Positions 4,507-18,386 of a DNA stretch of 64,000 nucleotides are shown here, piece after piece. The DNA comes from a virus, in IMG/VR virus record IMGVR_UViG_3300005471_000014, positions 4,927-68,926 of that record. One strand, 5' to 3'. The notes under the pieces are model-generated. The model did not search any database and had not been told where the DNA came from. It saw only the letters and a list, made by a program, of their open reading frames with translations. The first letter of the stretch is position 1, and every line of letters starts with the position of its first letter. Made by a program: the position numbers and the translations under genes.

Positions 4507-5159
4507 CGATCAGATTCATGCCCTGCATCTGCGTCCCCGGAATGGAATGCAACGTCAATGGACGTTGCCCTACGAAGGATCGCGAGCGCGAGCGACATCC
4601 GGACGAGCCAAAGAAGAAGCCGGAAACAACTGACGCGGCACGAGCTGATTGCATGAAGACGGTGCGATCGTGACTGCCGCGTGCGAAGAAAGCCGGAAGG
4701 CCGCCGCAAAACTGCGTGAAGGCCAAGTTTTGCAGGATCGTTACCGCGGCGGAAGGGTCTACGTCGATAGCTTGAAGGGTACGCGCGTACGCATATTTCA
4801 AGCTGAGAAGCCCCCCAAGAGCGATACCTACGTGCGCGCGCGTGGCTCCCCGGCGCGATGGGTAACCGCTGCGCGTCTCGTCAGGGACTTTTTCTTGGTC
4901 CAGCACGCATGAGGCCAGATCAGATCAAAACGGAGTGGGAGGCTATTCACGCAGCTCAGCGACGCCTTAGAGCAGCGAAGCGCTCACTTCGGTCAGCGCT
5001 CGCAAAGCGAGAACGGCGCGCTGCGCGAATTGAGGCGGCTGTCAGGGCATTTGAGGAATGTGCGCGCATCGTGGAGGCGGCCCAAACTGAACTGCAAATG
5101 GCACAACGCGAGAACGATCAGGCATTTCTGCGCTCGGCAAAACGGCGGTTGCGTGGCGT

Positions 5160-11386: not shown

Positions 11387-11644
11387 TTAGACGCGACGTT
11401 CTGTGGGGTCCGTAGTCGTCGCCGCGCGGACTGTGGGCTCAGCATTCATCGGATGCAGAAGCTCTCTCAGCAAGCGTTTCGGCGAGCACTTCAGCGCTCG
11501 CGTCAGATGCTCGAACAGCACAAGCCTTGGCACCAGGCGTCGGTGCTCAATCTGGCTGATGGTCGTCGCATCACAAAAACACTCGTCTGCCACGTCCTTC
11601 TGCGTTTTGCCCAGCTCTTCACGACGGTGTCGAACGTACTCCAT
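11387..11644 (-). CDS. Cro-like XRE HTH regulator
   Basis: RREELGKTQKDVADECFCDATTISQIEH; divergent from 11787. Confidence 0.8.
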   Translation of the reverse strand: MEYVRHRREELGKTQKDVADECFCDATTISQIEHRRLVPRLVLFEHLTRALKCSPKRLLRELLHPMNAEPTVRAATTTDPTERRV

Positions 11645-11676
11645 CGCGCGGACCCTACTCTCCGCAGAATCACGAA

Positions 11677-11695
11677 TGCAAACAGGCTGTGTGCA
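11677..11695. promoter_or_regulatory. 19-bp palindromic operator TGCAAACAGGCTGTGTGCA
   Basis: one of six related intergenic copies; between divergent HTH genes. Confidence 0.75.
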
Positions 11696-11786
11696 GATAT
11701 GAGAGCAACGGGCCTCTTTTGTTGAGCAGCACTCTACTCATCTGTATAGTTTCTCGGCCGATGATGGCTAGTCCACCGGGCCATTT

Positions 11787-12278
11787 ATGCGAGAAATCTC
11801 AACCAAGACGCGTCGCAAGCGCGCCCCCTTCAAACTGCGTCCTCTGACACCGGCAGAAAAAGCAGACTGCGCGGCGTTCGCACGCTGGAACGAGGAGCAG
11901 AACGCAGCACGCAAAGCCCGCGGCGAGAGGCGATTCAGCACTCAGCGCTGGGAAGAACTCACCGGTGTCCACCGCAACACCGTAGGCGCCTACGCCCGCG
12001 GTGAACGTCCAATGCCCGTTGAGTTTCAGTTAGATGCGGCTCAACACTGGCGGTGTCCTCCGCAGTTGATCTTCCCATCGTGGAAGTGGCCCAGCGTCAC
12101 GCGCGTGGCGCCGGATGACGAGTGCATGGCGCTCGTCGTGCAATTGCTCTCGCGCATGCGACCGAGCGAGCGCACCGAGGCGATATGGCTCCTCGAAACG
12201 TATGCAGGCGCGAACAAGTCCCTGCGCGCGAGAATTGCGCGCGAAGTCCGCAAACTCTTCGGAGACGGCGCGGGCTGA
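11787..12278 (+). CDS. CI-like HTH repressor (no S24 peptidase seen)
   Basis: WEELTGVHRNTVGAYARGERPMP HTH; divergent switch position. Confidence 0.65.
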   Translation: MREISTKTRRKRAPFKLRPLTPAEKADCAAFARWNEEQNAARKARGERRFSTQRWEELTGVHRNTVGAYARGERPMPVEFQLDAAQHWRCPPQLIFPSWKWPSVTRVAPDDECMALVVQLLSRMRPSERTEAIWLLETYAGANKSLRARIAREVRKLFGDGAG

Positions 12279-12542
12279 GCTAGAGCGATGCGCCTCTGAG
12301 TCTTCGCCCGCCGCCCGCTGGAACCTGATCCACCGGAATGCTCCTGGCGCGTTTTTTTCGTTTCGCCTTCACGAAAAAAAACGCGCGGTTATTCGGCCTG
12401 CTCCTCGACACTACTCCGCGCGTTGTGCCCGTCGCAAGTTACGCTCGCATCCTGCGGTGCTTTCCGCAGGAGTCCCGCTCCCGTTTTGTCTCTCGGTCGT
12501 TTGCAAACGCTCGTAGAGCTTCACTAACGTTCGCGCCCCCGC

Positions 12543-12561
12543 TGCACACAGCCTGTATGCA
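12543..12561. promoter_or_regulatory. operator copy TGCACACAGCCTGTATGCA
   Basis: matches palindrome consensus; 23 nt before ERF start. Confidence 0.75.
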
Positions 12562-12584
12562 GCGCCGACCCGAGGGGTGCGCAC

Positions 12585-13442
12585 ATGGCCGAGGACACGC
12601 AGCCGCTCCCACCGCCACCGCGCGTGGCCGCTGTGTTCGCGGCGATCCGCCGCGTCATGGAGGACATGGCGAAGTCGGGCGTCGGTAAGCTCAAGACCAA
12701 TTCGCAGCAGAATTTCGCCTATCGCGGCGTCGATGACGTGATGGATGCTCTCGCGCCCTCGCTCGCGCGCCACGGGCTCATCATCGTGCCGCACGTCACC
12801 GAGCGCTCGGTCACTGAGCGGGAGTCGCGCCAGGGGAGCAAGCTCTTCCACACGCTGCTCCGAATTGATTACGAATTCATCAGCGTGAGCGATGGCTCGA
12901 TTCACCTCGTCGGCCCGATCTATGGCGAGGCCATGGACAGCGGTGACAAGAGCACCAACAAGGCGATGGCGATCGCCTACAAATATTGCTGCGTGCAGAC
13001 CTTCTGCATCCCGGTCACGGGCGATGACCCGGATGCACAAGCCCACGAGATTGCGGGCGCGCAGGAGCGGGGGAACCTCCCGGCGGACTCGAAGCCCTCC
13101 ACCGGAACCGCTCCTAGCGCGCCCGCGCCTACCTCCGCATCTGCTCCGGAGCCGCACGCACCACGACGGGAGGTGCCGATCGGCGCCGATGGCAAGCCAC
13201 GCGTTTTGCGCAGTGGCGGCAATTTCGGCTACGGCAAGAAATTCGCGACGACCCCATGGGAGATGATGACGAAGCGCGACCTCGAATGGTTTCGCGACGC
13301 CGAGCGCACCCCCGAAAACGTGCGCACCAAGATCGACATCGAGTTGGCGTGGCGCGCCTATGACAACGCGATCTTTGAATCCGCGCGTGATGCCGATCGC
13401 GCCGCCGCCGACGCCGTGCCCTTCGACGACAGGATTCCGTGA
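12585..13442 (+). CDS. ERF-family single-strand annealing protein
   Basis: NFAYRGVDDV..LARHGL..GEAMDSGDKSTNKAMAIAYKY..F.IP..DDPD. Confidence 0.85.
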   Translation: MAEDTQPLPPPPRVAAVFAAIRRVMEDMAKSGVGKLKTNSQQNFAYRGVDDVMDALAPSLARHGLIIVPHVTERSVTERESRQGSKLFHTLLRIDYEFISVSDGSIHLVGPIYGEAMDSGDKSTNKAMAIAYKYCCVQTFCIPVTGDDPDAQAHEIAGAQERGNLPADSKPSTGTAPSAPAPTSASAPEPHAPRREVPIGADGKPRVLRSGGNFGYGKKFATTPWEMMTKRDLEWFRDAERTPENVRTKIDIELAWRAYDNAIFESARDADRAAADAVPFDDRIP

Positions 13443-13451
13443 GGGCGCGCC

Positions 13452-13859
13452 ATGCAAATCTACGAATTCACGGACGACATGAACGAGGTCAGCGGCTACG
13501 GCGGCGATTACGAGCGCGCCTGTCGCGCGGCCATCGCAGTCGGTGCCACCTGGGTAAGTCTGCATCCCGCAGCGGAGCCTGAAGTCGATGGCAACAACGG
13601 CATATCGGGGTACGTGCGAGGCGCGAATGAGGATGGAGCGAAGATGCTCGACTGCATCGACGATCAACCGTTCCGGATGGATGACGGACGCGAGGTCAAG
13701 CTGGGGGACGTGCTCACGCCCGCGATGTACTACGTCGCGCTCTATCACATCGGCTTCATCACGGAGTTCGGGTGGAATGCGTATGCGGAAAAGATGCGTT
13801 CGCCTACGCCTCTCCGTCCCGACGCCCGCACAAAGGTCTCCGATGACGACGCAAATTGA
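13452..13859 (+). CDS. hypothetical phage protein
   Basis: 135-aa ORF with purine-rich upstream site. Confidence 0.6.
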   Translation: MQIYEFTDDMNEVSGYGGDYERACRAAIAVGATWVSLHPAAEPEVDGNNGISGYVRGANEDGAKMLDCIDDQPFRMDDGREVKLGDVLTPAMYYVALYHIGFITEFGWNAYAEKMRSPTPLRPDARTKVSDDDAN

Positions 13860-14073
13860 GCTGACCGAGAACCAATTGCTCGCGCAGCTCCTGCGCGCGG
13901 CGACCTGGGTCATCGTGACATTCATCGTGTCCTTTGCGGCTTGGTCGATTCACAACAACTATTGCGCGAGCCTCGCGCTCGCGAAGGGAATTGATCCGCT
14001 CGGCGTCGCCTGCGTCTTCGGCAGCGACCGCACTGCCTGCGCGCTGGCGGCGCGCGGAGCGCCGCGCCCATGA
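13843..14073 (+). CDS. small membrane protein
   Basis: one hydrophobic segment WVIVTFIVSFAAW. Confidence 0.5.
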   Translation: MTTQIELTENQLLAQLLRAATWVIVTFIVSFAAWSIHNNYCASLALAKGIDPLGVACVFGSDRTACALAARGAPRP

Positions 14074-14273
14074 ACGCATGGGATGTCACTCAGCTCTTCG
14101 CGATCTATGCCGACCTGCTGGAATTTTATGAGCCCCAGGCGGCACGGGAATGGCTCGTGACACCCCAGCCGCTCCTCGACCATCGGCGCCCCTGCGAACT
14201 GCTCTCCACCCCGAGGGGGCACCAGCGTCTGCTCGACCTCCTCGCGCAACTGCGCGACAGCGCGCACCTCTGA
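14070..14273 (+). CDS. MbcA/ParS/Xre antitoxin C-terminal-domain protein (DUF2384-like)
   Basis: AREWLVTPQPLLDHRRPCELLSTPRGHQRLLDLL. Confidence 0.75.
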   Translation: MNAWDVTQLFAIYADLLEFYEPQAAREWLVTPQPLLDHRRPCELLSTPRGHQRLLDLLAQLRDSAHL

Positions 14274-14298
14274 AACGGAACTCGAAGGGTCAACTCAC

Positions 14299-15177
14299 AT
14301 GACAAAGCCAACGAAAATCGAATTGCCGCCGCTGAAGCTCGCCCACGCTGAAGTCGGGATTGTGGGCGACACGCCGCTCATCGTGCATGCGTGGAGTCAG
14401 AAGGCGCGCGAGGAGATGTTGCGCAAGCAGATGAAGCTCCCCGTACATCGCACGAGCAAGGACCCAGTGGATGCGTTCCTGCGCTCGATGTATCGCACGG
14501 ATGAGAATTTCTATGGCGTGCCCGCGGTCGGGGTCAAGAATGCAATGGTGACGGCGTGCACGTCCGTCGATGGGATCACGAAGACGGCTGCGCGACAGGC
14601 GTTCATCATCGTCGGCGAGAGAGGCAAGACGAAGGCCGCGTTCGCCGATCTATTTTCACCGCAGGACTTGGTGCGCATCCTGTCGCCCAATCCGCCGACG
14701 TTGCGCGAGGACATGGTGCGCCTCGCCGGCATCGGCAACACGGCGGACCTCCGTTACCGCGCCGAGTATTGGCCATGGGGAGCAAAGCTCACCATTCGCT
14801 ACAACGCGAACGTGCTCTCGCTCGATCAGCTCGCGAATTTGCTCAACACGTCGGGCTTCGGCGTCGGATTGTGCGAGTGGCGCCCGGAGAGAGATGGTCA
14901 GTCGGGCACCTTTCACGTCGCCGATGAGCACGACATGAAGATGCTCTCATCGCGAGCGTGGCTCACGCATCGCGAGCCCGAGCTGCCCGATGTCTCGGCG
15001 TGGATGCGCAAGATGAACGCCGAGAACCAAATAGCCGAGGGGAGCGTGCGCGCCGTCGCACGGCGTGGACGGCAGAAAGTCGCGATCCCCGAGGCGGCGA
15101 ATGATCCCGTGTTCGCACCGCCGGAGGCCCCGCAACCACGGCGGCGCCGTCGCAATGGTGCCGAGGAGATCGCGTGA
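14299..15177 (+). CDS. stand-alone RAMP (Cas7/Csm3-like) RNA-binding protein
   Basis: beta1 motif IVGDTPLIVH, helix motif VPAVGVKNAM, C-terminal Gly-loop GFGVGLCEWRPERDGQSGTF; no other cas genes. Confidence 0.7.
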   Translation: MTKPTKIELPPLKLAHAEVGIVGDTPLIVHAWSQKAREEMLRKQMKLPVHRTSKDPVDAFLRSMYRTDENFYGVPAVGVKNAMVTACTSVDGITKTAARQAFIIVGERGKTKAAFADLFSPQDLVRILSPNPPTLREDMVRLAGIGNTADLRYRAEYWPWGAKLTIRYNANVLSLDQLANLLNTSGFGVGLCEWRPERDGQSGTFHVADEHDMKMLSSRAWLTHREPELPDVSAWMRKMNAENQIAEGSVRAVARRGRQKVAIPEAANDPVFAPPEAPQPRRRRRNGAEEIA

Positions 15178-15635
15178 ATCGCGAGATCAAGGAAGCGCTC
15201 GATCAGATTGCAGAGAGCGACGAGCACGGGCGCCTGCGCGCGGAAGCGATCCTCGATCGCGCGAAGACGCGCAGCTCCCCGCTCCATCCGTGTTTCACCT
15301 GGGATGACGGCAAGGCGGCGGCGCGGTGGCGCATCGAAGAGGCACGCGGCTTGATCCGAAGTTACAGCGTCGTCATCGAGCAGGCGCATCCGATCCTGAC
15401 GCGCGCGTACGTGAGTTTGAAATCTTCGCGTGTGCAGGGCGGAGGCTATACGTCGATCCAGCGCATTCTCTCGGATCGCGAACTGCATGCCGAAATGCTG
15501 CGTGATGCGCTCGAAGAGATCGGGGAAGTCGAGCGCCGTTACGGACACTTGCGTGAATTGCAACCGGTGTTCGCGGAGGCGCGCAAGGTGAAACGTCGAG
15601 CGAAAGTCGCGAAGGTCGAGCCCGCGCATGCGTGA
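15174..15635 (+). CDS. phage protein coupled to the RAMP gene
   Basis: GTGA overlap; SPLHPCFTWDD..AA..WR...AR.LIRS motif; array starts 2 nt after stop. Confidence 0.75.
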   Translation: MNREIKEALDQIAESDEHGRLRAEAILDRAKTRSSPLHPCFTWDDGKAAARWRIEEARGLIRSYSVVIEQAHPILTRAYVSLKSSRVQGGGYTSIQRILSDRELHAEMLRDALEEIGEVERRYGHLRELQPVFAEARKVKRRAKVAKVEPAHA

Positions 15636-15637
15636 GT

Positions 15638-16500
15638 GGCAGGAAGGTAAGCGCTAGGAAGGGACCGGCCCCGATCGGGACGGCAAGGAATGCTTGGCTA
15701 GTTGGGGATTGGCAGGCGAGGCCGCTTGAGGCGCGTAGAGGCTGATCTTGGTGCGTCTCGTCGATGTTGGACTGGCATGGCCCGGCAGGCGAGGTTGCGC
15801 GAGTTGCGCAAGGGCGAAGTAATGCGAGGGATGGCAGGACGGGATTCGCTCTGTGTCGCGCGGACAGGCGAGGACTCGCGGTGACAGGTTTGGTTTGGGC
15901 TTGGACCGGCAGCCTTGGCATCGCGAGGCGCGAGCGGGGCAAGGTCGGGACAGGACCGGCCGGCATGGTGGCGAATGCAATGGATGGGCGACTCATGCGT
16001 TGGCGCGGCGATTCGAGGATGGGCAGCCAAGGCGGTGCATTGGTGGCGTCGCTGGATGCGGCAGGCTTGGCTTGCATAGCGCGGGCAACGCTCGGGAAGG
16101 CTCGGCCGGAACGGCTCGGATTGTCGGCGTGGTGTTGGAGTGCATTGGATCGGCTGGATAGGTTTCGCAGTGCCGGGCCACGACAGGACGGGCCGGATAG
16201 CGATGGCGGGTCGATGCTGCGACAGGCACGGACAGGACCGGCGACGCAGGCGCGGCTTCGCTGCTCGCGGGCGGGATCGCATAGGCATGGCGAGCATTGC
16301 CAGCGCGCGGCGAGCGACGGCAGGCGAGTTGTCGGTCAGGCACGGACAGGACCGACTTTGCGGTGCGCGGATTGGACAGGCTGGCATGGTCCGGCAAGCC
16401 CCTGCGGGGCTTTGAGGGCGGAGGCACGGCAAGGCAGGCATGGGCGGCGGGGTGCTGCGCGCGAAGGCAAGGAACGCATTGGCGTGGCCGGTGAGGCGGT
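15638..16500 (+). repeat. non-coding pentamer-periodic (GGN-NN) array of ~15 units, putative guide-RNA precursor
   Basis: 5-nt phase e.g. GGCA|GGACG|GGATT|CGCTC|TGTGT|CGCGC|GGACA|GGCGA|GGACT|CGCGG|TGACA|GGTTT|GGTTT; strong G skew; units start at GGCA/GGCC/GGCT tetramers. Confidence 0.8.
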
Positions 16501-16504
16501 TGGG

Positions 16505-16538
16505 CGCACACAGCCTGTTTGCACACAGGCTGTGTGCA
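16505..16538. promoter_or_regulatory. two overlapping operator copies before xis-int
   Basis: CGCACACAGCCTGTTTGCA (16505-16523) and TGCACACAGGCTGTGTGCA (16520-16538). Confidence 0.8.
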
Positions 16539-16554
16539 AATAAACAGGCCACAA

Positions 16555-16932
16555 GTGTCAAATGCCGCCGACACCGCCACGCCCGAAGCGGAATATACGG
16601 AGAAGCAGATTGCGGACCGGATGCAGGTGAAGGTCCGCGATGTGAAGTGGCTGATGAGAACGGGTCAACTGGAATTCATGAAGGTCACGCCGCGCAAGTG
16701 GCGCATCACCGAGAACCAATACCAGCGCTACAAAGCGCGGAAGGAAGCGGAGGCCGCATGCCGCGCGAAGATCGACTTACCTACAAGGGCTACTACCTCA
16801 TCGAGCCCGAGGCCAATAGTAAGTCCCCCTGCTACCTCATCGCCTGGTACGACGCTAAGTCCGGACAACGACGCACTCGTACAACTGGCGTCGAGAATGT
16901 TAGCCCGGAGAGCAAAGACCAAGCCCACCTGA
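16555..16932 (+). CDS. excisionase-like HTH (MerR/HTH_17-type) protein
   Basis: YTEKQIADRMQVKVRDVKWLMRTGQL..KWRIT; directly upstream of and overlapping integrase. Confidence 0.7.
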   Translation: MSNAADTATPEAEYTEKQIADRMQVKVRDVKWLMRTGQLEFMKVTPRKWRITENQYQRYKARKEAEAACRAKIDLPTRATTSSSPRPIVSPPATSSPGTTLSPDNDALVQLASRMLARRAKTKPT

Positions 16933-18386
16933 AGCTCATCAAATACGCGAACGCTCACCCGCTGCTCGTTCGTCAGGCGGCAGCCGCTGAAGCGAGTCTC
17001 GCGCGCCAGTTCGCGAACACGAAGCCGCTGACCGACGAGGAAGTGAAAGTGCTCGCGCAGGAGGCAGCGGACTCGGTCGAGGCGCAACCGGATTGGGCCA
17101 AGCGCGAGCCGGTAGATGATCTACCGCTCAGCGCCGTGATGATGCAGTACCTCGCGCTGCGCACGTACATCAAGAACAAGGGTCGAGTCGTGAGCGCGCT
17201 CGCGGACTTCCAAGAAGTGTTCGGCAAGAACGTGACCTGTCGGCAACTCACCGGCGCGGCCCAGCACACCTTTGTCGCGAACCGTCGCGCGCTCATCGAC
17301 CCGACGACGGGGCTGCGTCAACAAACGGACTGGACGATCCTCACGCGCATGAAGAGTGCGTGGGCGGCGATGAACGATGCGGTTGAGATGAACACGTTGA
17401 AGCGCAAGGCCGTGCCGCGACGGCTGTCGGCGCGCAAGTGGAAGCCGAAGGCGTTCCTGAAGAAGCGCAAGGTGACCCTGCCGTTGGAGTCGATCGCGAA
17501 GTTGATTATGGTCGCGTGGCAGAATCCCGAGCGCTGGCTGCCTTTCATTCTTCAGGGCATCGAGTATTGCTGCCGCCCGATGGGGGCGCTCGATGCCGAG
17601 CCCCGCAACTACGATCCGGAGAGCGAGACCGTCTCACTCCTCGCCTATGGCGAGAATGGCGAACAGGTCGAGGAGAGCGACAAGCGTCGGGCAATCGTGA
17701 AGCTCAGCCCGACGATGCAGCGGTGGCTGAAGTTCTGGTGCGCCAAGAAACGGCAGGCGCCGCAATGGCACGACCCGCAGTTCGTCACGTACATGGGTCA
17801 CCGGATGGTGACGTTCGACTTCTTCATGGTGATCGCGAAGCGCGCCGGGGTCACGATCCCGCGTGGCCTCGGCGCCTACATCCTGCGAAAATTCGCCGCG
17901 TCACAGTTGGCCAAGCGCAAGGTCAAACGGGAGGAACGACGGGTGCGGCTCGGACATGACATCGATCAAGACCCAGTGTCGAGTGGGTACGTGCATTTGG
18001 AGCCCGACTATCAGGCCGAAGCCGCTGCCGCGCTTGAACAGATGTGGCACGAGATCGATGCGTTTCTGCCGCCCGAGATGACGATTCTCGTGCCGCATGA
18101 TGCGGTGGGCGAGTTGGTCAGCGGGGACGCGGACACGGAGGCTGCGGCGCTCTATGTACCGGGAAAGCGGCCCCAGGATCGAGTCATGCACCTCGACCCG
18201 GTGCGAGAGGATCAAGCGGAGCCTGGACGCTACGCGACATGGTTTTGGGAGCAGTTCCAAGGGGCCGCTTTTAGGCTGCATCCGGGACCGTGGCACGAGC
18301 GTGGCACGCGTCGGACGAATCAGCACAGTAAACAGGAGGTTACAGAGACTGTGGCAGTCCCTGACAAGGACCCGCCAAGTGAATGA
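16758..18386 (+). CDS. int: tyrosine recombinase / integrase
   Basis: catalytic pattern R (YCCRP), K (SDKR), YILR (HxxR variant), LGH, Y (GYVH); GGAGG upstream of ATG 16758. Confidence 0.75.
   Translation: MPREDRLTYKGYYLIEPEANSKSPCYLIAWYDAKSGQRRTRTTGVENVSPESKDQAHLKLIKYANAHPLLVRQAAAAEASLARQFANTKPLTDEEVKVLAQEAADSVEAQPDWAKREPVDDLPLSAVMMQYLALRTYIKNKGRVVSALADFQEVFGKNVTCRQLTGAAQHTFVANRRALIDPTTGLRQQTDWTILTRMKSAWAAMNDAVEMNTLKRKAVPRRLSARKWKPKAFLKKRKVTLPLESIAKLIMVAWQNPERWLPFILQGIEYCCRPMGALDAEPRNYDPESETVSLLAYGENGEQVEESDKRRAIVKLSPTMQRWLKFWCAKKRQAPQWHDPQFVTYMGHRMVTFDFFMVIAKRAGVTIPRGLGAYILRKFAASQLAKRKVKREERRVRLGHDIDQDPVSSGYVHLEPDYQAEAAAALEQMWHEIDAFLPPEMTILVPHDAVGELVSGDADTEAAALYVPGKRPQDRVMHLDPVREDQAEPGRYATWFWEQFQGAAFRLHPGPWHERGTRRTNQHSKQEVTETVAVPDKDPPSE

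Follow-up and report, generated by a model that had tools for sequence, protein, structure and literature searches.

The closest described relatives of the locus analysed here are the VIPR (Viral Interference Programmable Repeat) systems, in which phage-borne RAMP proteins named Vipr are encoded together with a vap gene and with repeat RNAs (vrRNAs) made of a GGY triplet and two variable bases, NN (bioRxiv 10.64898/2026.04.26.720920). According to the parts of that preprint on which we draw, the NN bases pair with double-stranded DNA (dsDNA) and every third target base is skipped; the targets are mostly coding DNA in which the skipped base is the wobble one, and correspond to competing elements and lysis-lysogeny regulators (10.64898/2026.04.26.720920). 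The same parts distinguish seven types, with array variants that include a 'staggered' form with 1-nt overlaps, allow repeat forms beyond GGY (NNNGG, YNNNG and NNNNG), and describe type II vrRNAs as 9-16 repeats followed by an invariable structured 3' tail, a pseudoknot (10.64898/2026.04.26.720920). A structural preprint, likewise used in part, resolves the base contacts of the VIPR filament, which has one protomer per repeat (10.64898/2026.04.26.720927), and sections of a third describe guides against the catalytic-core codons of a satellite recombinase and argue that wobble-skipping blocks escape (10.64898/2026.10.15.759431). We analysed a stretch of 64,000 nt, hereafter the window (positions 4,927 to 68,926 of IMG/VR record IMGVR_UViG_3300005471_000014), from the 69-kb (68.9 kb) genome of a temperate phage found in rhizosphere metagenomes; the record is that of an uncultured virus, 89% complete according to CheckV. 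The locus under study (window 14299-16507) comprises a vipr gene, an accessory gene and a pentamer array, and is very probably (probability of about 0.88) a VIPR system with which this phage would silence genes of co-resident elements or of host defence/regulator cassettes, judging from its sequence and by analogy with the published systems. A sequence-only reading of the window had already proposed a guide system, distinct from CRISPR, consisting of a RAMP, a partner and a pentamer RNA, and had pointed to a likeness to VIPR; the class is indeed in print (10.64898/2026.04.26.720920; 10.64898/2026.04.26.720927), and the proposal appears well supported by the protein, the layout and the guide matches described below.

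The vipr product has a core of about 205 aa followed by a clade-specific C-terminal extension. It had no match in Pfam and matched a PHROG of unknown function (phrog_4652, 2.1e-21), and about 3841 database proteins matched it at E <= 1e-3, some of them with 64-89% identity. A single-sequence search of PDB sequences retrieved 36pp, the 'SUSP1 Vipr protein', at only E 0.27; a profile of 45 homologues reached the same entry at E 1.7e-7 over query residues 140-200. The G-loop (GxGxWRP), included in this range, and the thumb (YR) were aligned with those of 36pp by the profile. Residues R154, E193, W194 and R195, invariant in the 45-sequence alignment, fall opposite R138, D177, W178 and R179 of the SUSP1 protein, which contact the G1 and G2 guanines in the part of the structural account used here (bioRxiv 10.64898/2026.04.26.720927). 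The near-invariant H30, in a region outside the alignment, may be the counterpart of SUSP1 H17. The AlphaFold2 model (predicted local distance difference test, pLDDT, 86.5; predicted template modelling score, pTM, 0.76) gave 48 Foldseek matches at E <= 1e-3, headed by Csm3, Cmr and Cas7-11 chains (E from 2e-5, probability ~1.0; 8-16% identity), in a structure library extending through 8 April 2026 that does not have 36pp among its entries. Both the profile and the Foldseek search bear out the RAMP/Cas7-like identity first proposed, and the protein is, by alignment and by model, a Vipr relative with a predicted Cas7/Csm3-like fold.

In the close clade of this Vipr (22 aligned sequences, 64-88% identical), the extension conserves W221, H224, E226-P227, P230-D231 and W235 and carries two basic motifs, RRGR and a terminal RRRRR. 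It is modelled as helices up to about residue 248 with a disordered basic tail thereafter, and is missing in relatives of 217-225 aa and in the 202-aa SUSP1 Vipr. No close relative was found in a first metagenome scan with the single Vipr protein, and a scan of the viral_contigs database gave one weak partial match only. Homologues with 36-40% identity occur in the cultured Gordonia phages ODay, Ecliptus, UmaThurman and Pipp and in about 27 Mycobacterium phage records (Donkeykong, Quico, Saal, Brocalys and others), all annotated as hypothetical proteins.

The second gene is vap-like in its position and is translationally coupled to vipr through the GTGA overlap; its stop codon (15633-15635) is followed, 2 nt on, by the first GGCA unit at 15638. 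The coordinates thus confirm the arrangement noticed at the outset, in which an open reading frame (ORF) at 14299-15177 is coupled to a 153-aa gene and the tract begins 2 nt after the stop. Both the vipr and the vap-like frames are open, with the conserved residues present. No Pfam family was detected in the vap-like protein across 46 members and no relative among PDB sequences; its ESM Atlas matches were restricted to unnamed viral clusters, and its structural matches were weak and winged-helix-like only.

The tract downstream of these genes (15638-16500) contains 378 G in 863 nt, with a GC skew of 0.29 versus 0.05-0.11 in the flanking genes. Against a background of 300 dinucleotide shuffles, the autocorrelation of G at lags 5, 10 and 15 had z values of 9.0, 5.2 and 5.4, and that of GG 7.3, 3.7 and 3.0, which are the peaks that the sequence-only reading had expected; at lags 2, 3, 7 and 8 the autocorrelation was negative. 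Chaining of GG-starting units recovered the G-skewed tract of 5-nt steps as 177 units over 15642-16507 (866 nt; score 151.5); the best control chains scored 14.5 when the other strand of the entire window was used and 10.0 when the tract was masked. The steps between units were of 5 nt (155), 4 nt (17), 6 nt (2) and 3 nt (2), and the array opens with GGCA. A separate chaining into 183 units was dominated by the same triplets that had been listed from the letters alone, namely GGC (65), GGA (30), GGT (14), CGC (12) and TGC (10). The unit composition was G.76, G.79, C.50/A.27/G.12/T.11, followed by two positions free of preference. The power of G at period 3 was 0.13 in the tract versus 1.4-8.8 in three flanking genes, so the tract lacks the signal of a translated sequence, which would have told against a guide RNA.

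The array has no repeated structured tail, its direct-repeat families being short and only 68-82% alike. The only strong structure at the array is the hairpin 3' of the last unit: the RNA fold of 16490-16565 has an energy of -35.9 kcal/mol (z = -3.6) and one of 200 shuffles was as stable. This hairpin, which no U-run follows, might terminate the array transcript or cap its 3' end. The absence of cas genes and CRISPR repeats, another early observation, agrees with the PADLOC and Tandem Repeats Finder searches: no Cas model (E <= 1e-5) matched any of the 52 window ORFs, 51 of which had no defence match of any kind and one of which (806-1345) had weak non-Cas matches, and no CRISPR-like array was detected in the window by Tandem Repeats Finder, to which the pentamer array itself is invisible. 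No Rfam family, including CRISPR repeats, was found in 14000-17000 at E <= 1.

The comparison set consisted of 160 related loci, 80 from species genomes and 80 from metagenomes, distributed over many phyla. Of the genome loci, 76 had 600 nt or more downstream, and in 63 of these the power of G at period 5 was at least 2.0 on the strand of the gene, no further than 1.5 kb downstream; this value was attained in 4/70 elsewhere in the loci and in 6/78 upstream. In both sets together, 118 loci had at least 1 kb downstream, and in 100 of them the best GG-pentamer chain started between -60 and +1500 of the end of the vipr homologue (not so in the other 18), with a median chain score in relatives of 70.75 versus 8 in the opposite-strand control. 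In 67 of the 80 genome loci the partner gene has a homologue, which either separates vipr from the array or lies beyond the array. It had been anticipated that homologues elsewhere would adjoin such tracts, and these counts agree. Among relatives the median array length is 54.5 units (266 nt; 95th percentile 158, maximum 327), which places the 177 units of the window array among the longest, and the relatives' unit consensus is G.92, G.83, C.55/T.32/A.08, N, N. Across 117 of these arrays, 5-nt steps numbered 8299, 4-nt steps 832, 6-nt steps 51 and 3-nt steps 48, so that 4-nt steps are sixteen times commoner than either of the last two; the window array (155/17/2/2) has the same proportions. 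The 4-nt units of relatives have the consensus GGCA (C.79, A.69) and are most often spaced by 10-11 units. This comparative evidence shows vipr to be accompanied by both the partner gene and a GGCA-punctuated array.

Guides were read by writing each pentamer run as NNx, with a 1-nt skip, and searched as exact matches. By our own estimate for the genome_contigs database (both strands of 596 billion bases, all four bases taken as equally frequent), about 0.07 chance matches are expected for 22 bases and about 1 for 20 bases; 19, at least 120 and 9 were observed for three guides, referred to below by the zinc motifs that they spell, HExxH, JAMM and a second zinc-ligand motif, respectively. All three begin right after a GGCN step, and their NN strings are perfect for 10-11 units, the base that is skipped falling at the wobble position. 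The proposal that the NN pairs spell a gapped target therefore holds with a gap of 1 nt, three guides matching coding DNA in frame.

Two of these guides correspond to one gene family. The HExxH guide (15837-15891) had one exact viral_contigs match, in frame in a Peptidase_M78 ORF, and its 19 exact 22-base matches in genome_contigs were all in frame as RFSVAHELGH[FL] and all in genes assigned to Pfam Peptidase_M78 (19/19 each). In the 20 M78 loci fetched with this guide, the second-motif guide (15715-15764) reached at least 80% NN in 5, versus 0 in 20 shuffles, in frame and downstream of the HExxH site by 72-132 nt. When this guide was used on its own, genome_contigs yielded 9 exact matches, 9/9 in frame, of which 7 were in metagenome-assembled genomes of Longimicrobiales/Gemmatimonadetes; in 6 of these 9 loci a match of the HExxH guide to 20-21 of its 22 bases also lies at -126 nt, sharing the frame, whereas shuffled guides reached at most 16. 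In four of these loci the second-motif match ran on across the 4-nt unit at 15765 for 6/7 further bases. The M78 targets belong to Xre-HTH (helix-turn-helix) and M78 gene pairs beside HNH, GmrSD_C, ResIII-helicase, HigB and IS21 genes.

Some genomes carry two guide-matching Xre-M78 cassettes, beside HNH, HigB and YhgA-like transposase genes; one Longimicrobiales contig has two matching sites 2.6 kb apart (loci L312 and L313), and loci L308 and L311 come from one genome. These double regions look like a mobile or defence island. Among the five genomes with both M78 sites, none had a Vipr homologue and none had DNA like 20 kb of the phage, and an M78 gene is absent from the genome of the phage itself. 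Guides that decode to the M78 peptide RF[TS/DE][IL]AHELGH were seen in two distant relatives, one per orientation (locus L114, 340-414; locus L039, 5151-5230). HELGH-type guides were found in 2 of 117 relatives' arrays versus about 0.01 expected, and M78 genes would seem to be a recurrent target of this Vipr clade.

The JAMM guide (16195-16244) had one exact viral_contigs match, in frame in a JAB gene of an operon encoding CapV (patatin), a DncV-like CD-NTase, an E2-E1 protein (Cap2) and JAB, which is the layout of a type II CBASS (cyclic oligonucleotide-based antiphage signalling system). It had at least 120 exact matches in genome_contigs; among the matches listed, 120/120 were in frame, the JAB ORFs had a median of 165 aa, and 41 of the 65 JAB loci with full flanks had a Cap2 homologue upstream on the same strand. 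No JAMM guide was found among the 117 relatives' arrays. The candidate guide at 16334-16378 shares an internal repeat with 16194-16240 (D2, 72% identity), and its only viral_contigs target, a sole 18-base match in a 19-codon frame, looks like chance and was rejected.

In viral_contigs there were no matches for four further patterns of 20 bases each, namely two 10-unit patterns of the guide at 15962-16021, one of 16249-16318 and one of 16383-16432, and the last of these, with up to 2 mismatches, gave one match in 301 Gemmatimonadota genomes, the same number as its backwards control. The other runs (12-13 tested, minus the three matched) did not exceed shuffles on the M78, JAB and Longimicrobiales loci. 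Within the phage's 68.9 kb no self-target exceeded the wrong-skip and shuffled controls, the best value (15/18) being equalled with 0- and 3-nt skips.

By analogy with SUSP1, vipr, the accessory gene and the array would be co-transcribed from an early operon running into xis-int. The long transcript would be cut at or near the 4-nt GGCA steps, giving guides of about 7-14 pentamers. Each pentamer would take up one Vipr protomer, with its first three bases buried and its two variable bases presented, and the filament would pair with dsDNA as NNxNNx..., skipping every third base and blocking transcription there. The most likely role of such a system would be the silencing of genes of co-resident mobile elements or of host defence/regulator cassettes, by guides aimed at codons that cannot be changed without loss of catalysis.

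Several observations weigh against a functional silencing system of this kind, and some of them would suit a decaying VIPR locus with intact genes, a drifted array, most units failing to load Vipr, and partial or complete inactivity. As was remarked from the letters alone, the triplets of the array are looser than a strict GGY: only 62% of the units have GG (11th percentile of the 117 relatives), 25% have A at position 3 (above 97% of relatives), and many triplets are CGC, TGC, GCA or GCG. The matched guides themselves include CGC, TGT, TGA and GCG triplets, and in the part of the structural preprint used here the SUSP1 protein reads both Gs specifically and bars purines at position 3 (10.64898/2026.04.26.720927); the non-GG units may nevertheless load onto this Vipr. 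Nine of the twelve runs of at least 7 pentamers had no above-chance target in the searched sequences. The promoter scan gave a single site (11722-11750), at the chance rate, and the six runs that carry the phage are all DNA (rhizosphere/soil metagenomes), so transcription of the tract is presumed. We nevertheless consider decay improbable. The three matched guides keep perfect NN over 10-11 units despite 4-5 non-GG triplets each, and drift would have struck the NN positions too; vipr and the vap-like gene are open and retain their conserved residues. In addition, array pieces of 294, 282 and 258 nt, which include window 15670-15963 and 16162-16419, are letter-identical (0 differences) in contigs of three other rhizosphere runs, whereas the erf and vipr pieces from those runs show a few differences from the window. 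These contigs are of low depth and hint that the array is not hypervariable between rhizosphere samples. The long ORFs that cross the tract (259 aa on the plus strand and 287 aa on the minus strand), its position next to xis/int and its terminal palindrome might instead point to some other G-rich element, such as low-complexity coding sequence, G-quadruplex DNA or an att/regulatory region, with coincidental motif matches. This explanation is barely credible and already contradicted by the comparative sequence data, given that the tract lacks a period-3 signal, that its 4-nt steps break any reading frame, and that a strand-specific tract of very different lengths follows the vipr homologue in 100/118 loci of many phyla. 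Nor would it account for 19/19 and, among the matches listed, 120/120 exact matches in frame with one motif each, or for two guides on one gene at a fixed distance of 126 nt.

If the locus is taken to be a working VIPR system, its aim has still to be weighed. The JAB and Xre-M78 matches admit a reading in which VIPR serves as RNA-guided counter-defence, with wobble-blind motif guides against catalytic codons of Cap3-type JAB genes (in CBASS-like cap2-cap3 pairs) and of Xre-M78 cassettes in defence islands. We regard this as possible but doubtful. The matched motifs are conserved in many phyla, so the guides name gene families rather than the actual host or target element; among the matches listed, every locus that has a Cap2 homologue (41/41) has its JAB gene downstream of cap2, so that a block there would not silence the upstream CBASS genes, and the counter-defence reading is weakened since a block of cap3 has no obvious benefit for the phage. 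The words CBASS, ImmA and anti-defense do not appear in the main texts, as available, of two VIPR preprints (the structural preprint was outside that comparison), nor do JAB and peptidase in the main text of one of the preprints or metallopeptidase in that of another. The same machinery might have a narrower aim, namely one competing prophage or satellite, like the published cases of SUSP1 and P. fulva, in which case the CBASS and defence contexts would be incidental to universal motifs; we judge its chance to be only slightly below even. ImmA-like M78 peptidases are lysis-lysogeny regulators, as parts of ImmR/ImmA switches, and the M78 guides would suit such an aim. Both viral_contigs guide matches are in provirus records. 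The targets reported in the sections of the preprints cited are competing elements and lysis-lysogeny regulators (10.64898/2026.04.26.720920) and the catalytic-core codons of a satellite recombinase (10.64898/2026.10.15.759431). Against so narrow an aim, the Xre-M78 cassettes matched by both guides adjoin HNH, GmrSD_C, ResIII-helicase, HigB and IS21 genes, the 4 kb covered contained no structural genes of a phage, and the JAB matches, among those listed, are mostly cap2-cap3 pairs.

The VIPR locus is housed in a lambda-like early region (11390-18386), where Pfam and PHROGs annotation places it between the ERF recombinase gene and xis/int (Table 1). The promoter and terminator scan remained at chance level. 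The short ORF directly 5' of vipr contains an Xre_MbcA_ParS_C domain only, with no toxin gene beside it, and its product may be a phage-borne decoy against host toxins of the Res/MbcT/ParT type. Contigs from four runs, short and of low depth, show that the phage is present in other samples.

Table 1. Features of the VIPR locus and the surrounding early region (window coordinates).
Feature	Position	Strand	Description
HTH repressor	11390-11644	-	Early region
Divergent promoter-like site	11722-11750		Followed by an HTH ORF
ERF annealing protein	12585-13442		Early region
67-aa ORF	14070-14273	+	Xre_MbcA_ParS_C domain only (Pfam E 3.1e-8); directly 5' of vipr
vipr	14299-15177	+	292 aa; stand-alone RAMP (Cas7-like)
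Vipr C-terminal extension	14911-15177		Residues ~205-292; from alignment of 22 relatives and model
vap-like accessory gene	15174-15635	+	153 aa; GTG start; 4-nt overlap with vipr stop (GTGA)
vrRNA array (putative)	15638-16507	+	~177 [GGH][NN] units; 4-nt steps (mostly GGCN) would delimit ~16-18 guides
Guide, second zinc-ligand motif	15715-15783	+	[DE]R[DE]A[DE]W[FL]AS[DE] (15715-15764), probably on to LLVP; E.EA..FA..E of M78 genes
Guide, HExxH zinc motif	15837-15891	+	R[FL]SVA[HQ][DE]LG[HQ][FL]; M78 (ImmA/IrrE-like) peptidase genes
Guide, JAMM zinc motif	16195-16244	+	Y[IM]G[DE]WHTHP[DE]; Cap3-type Prok-JAB genes
Candidate guide	16334-16378	+	[HQ]T[HQ]P[FL]GA[FL][HQ]; possibly second JAMM-type guide
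Perfect 13-bp hairpin	16507-16538	+	Directly 3' of last unit; inverted repeat I2
Excisionase-like ORF	within 16519-16932		3' of array
Integrase	16758-18386		3' of array

As the VIPR class is already in print, the locus itself is a confirmation, and its interest lies in the guides, which are legible as peptides: RFSVAHELGH and EREADWFASE, both on the M78 gene, and YIGEWHTHPE on the Cap3-type JAB gene. In a clade unrelated to those described, the decoded guides would support the idea that VIPR is directed at unchangeable codons, as put forward in the sections consulted of 10.64898/2026.10.15.759431. With the JAB and Xre-M78 matches it also becomes conceivable that, besides rival phages, the immune operons of bacteria are among the targets of some VIPR guides; if this were true, one counter-defence guide would serve across many alleles and hosts. 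The comparison set is large and clean and includes cultured Gordonia and Mycobacterium phages suited to testing.

Among known systems, the predicted fold of the protein resembles that of the Cas7-group RAMPs of class 1 CRISPR systems (Csm3, Cmr4/6, Cas7-11; Foldseek E 2e-5 to 1e-3), and the logic is alike, each subunit occupying a fixed step of the guide RNA and a thumb flipping bases out. However, a step in the window spans 5 nt and pairs through 2 bases, as against 6 nt and 5 pairing bases in the Cas7 group, and the window contains neither another cas gene nor a repeat-spacer array, as a class 1 CRISPR-Cas effector would have. The features that define VIPR were found instead, namely homology to Vipr, a pentamer array, an accessory gene in the absence of cas genes and CRISPR, and guide matches with a 1-nt skip. 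Within VIPR, the locus is most readily compared with type II (Escherichia phage SUSP1, Pseudomonas fulva prophage; PDB 36pp), with which it shares the stand-alone RAMP with its G-loop and thumb residues, the two-gene vipr-vap phage operon with an adjacent RNA of 5-nt units bearing two variable bases, and coding-DNA targets read with a 1-nt skip that falls on the wobble position. Only some 60 residues in the C-terminal half are similar in sequence to the SUSP1 Vipr, and the window protein has 292 aa with a C-terminal helical and basic extension, whereas that of SUSP1 has 202 aa. The third base of the unit is C, then A, then T in the window and strictly Y in SUSP1; the RNA of SUSP1 is a unit of about 100 nt with a conserved pseudoknot tail, whereas that of the window is a single GGCA-punctuated run of 866 nt, whose units continue through the 4-nt steps without the tail that follows each type II vrRNA. 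In this respect the locus bears a likeness to the 'staggered' vrRNA arrays of other VIPR types, which are likewise tail-less, head-to-tail guides with a one-base irregularity at the junctions, and the GGCA steps of the window fit the published description of such arrays as given in its figure legend, with which they were compared.

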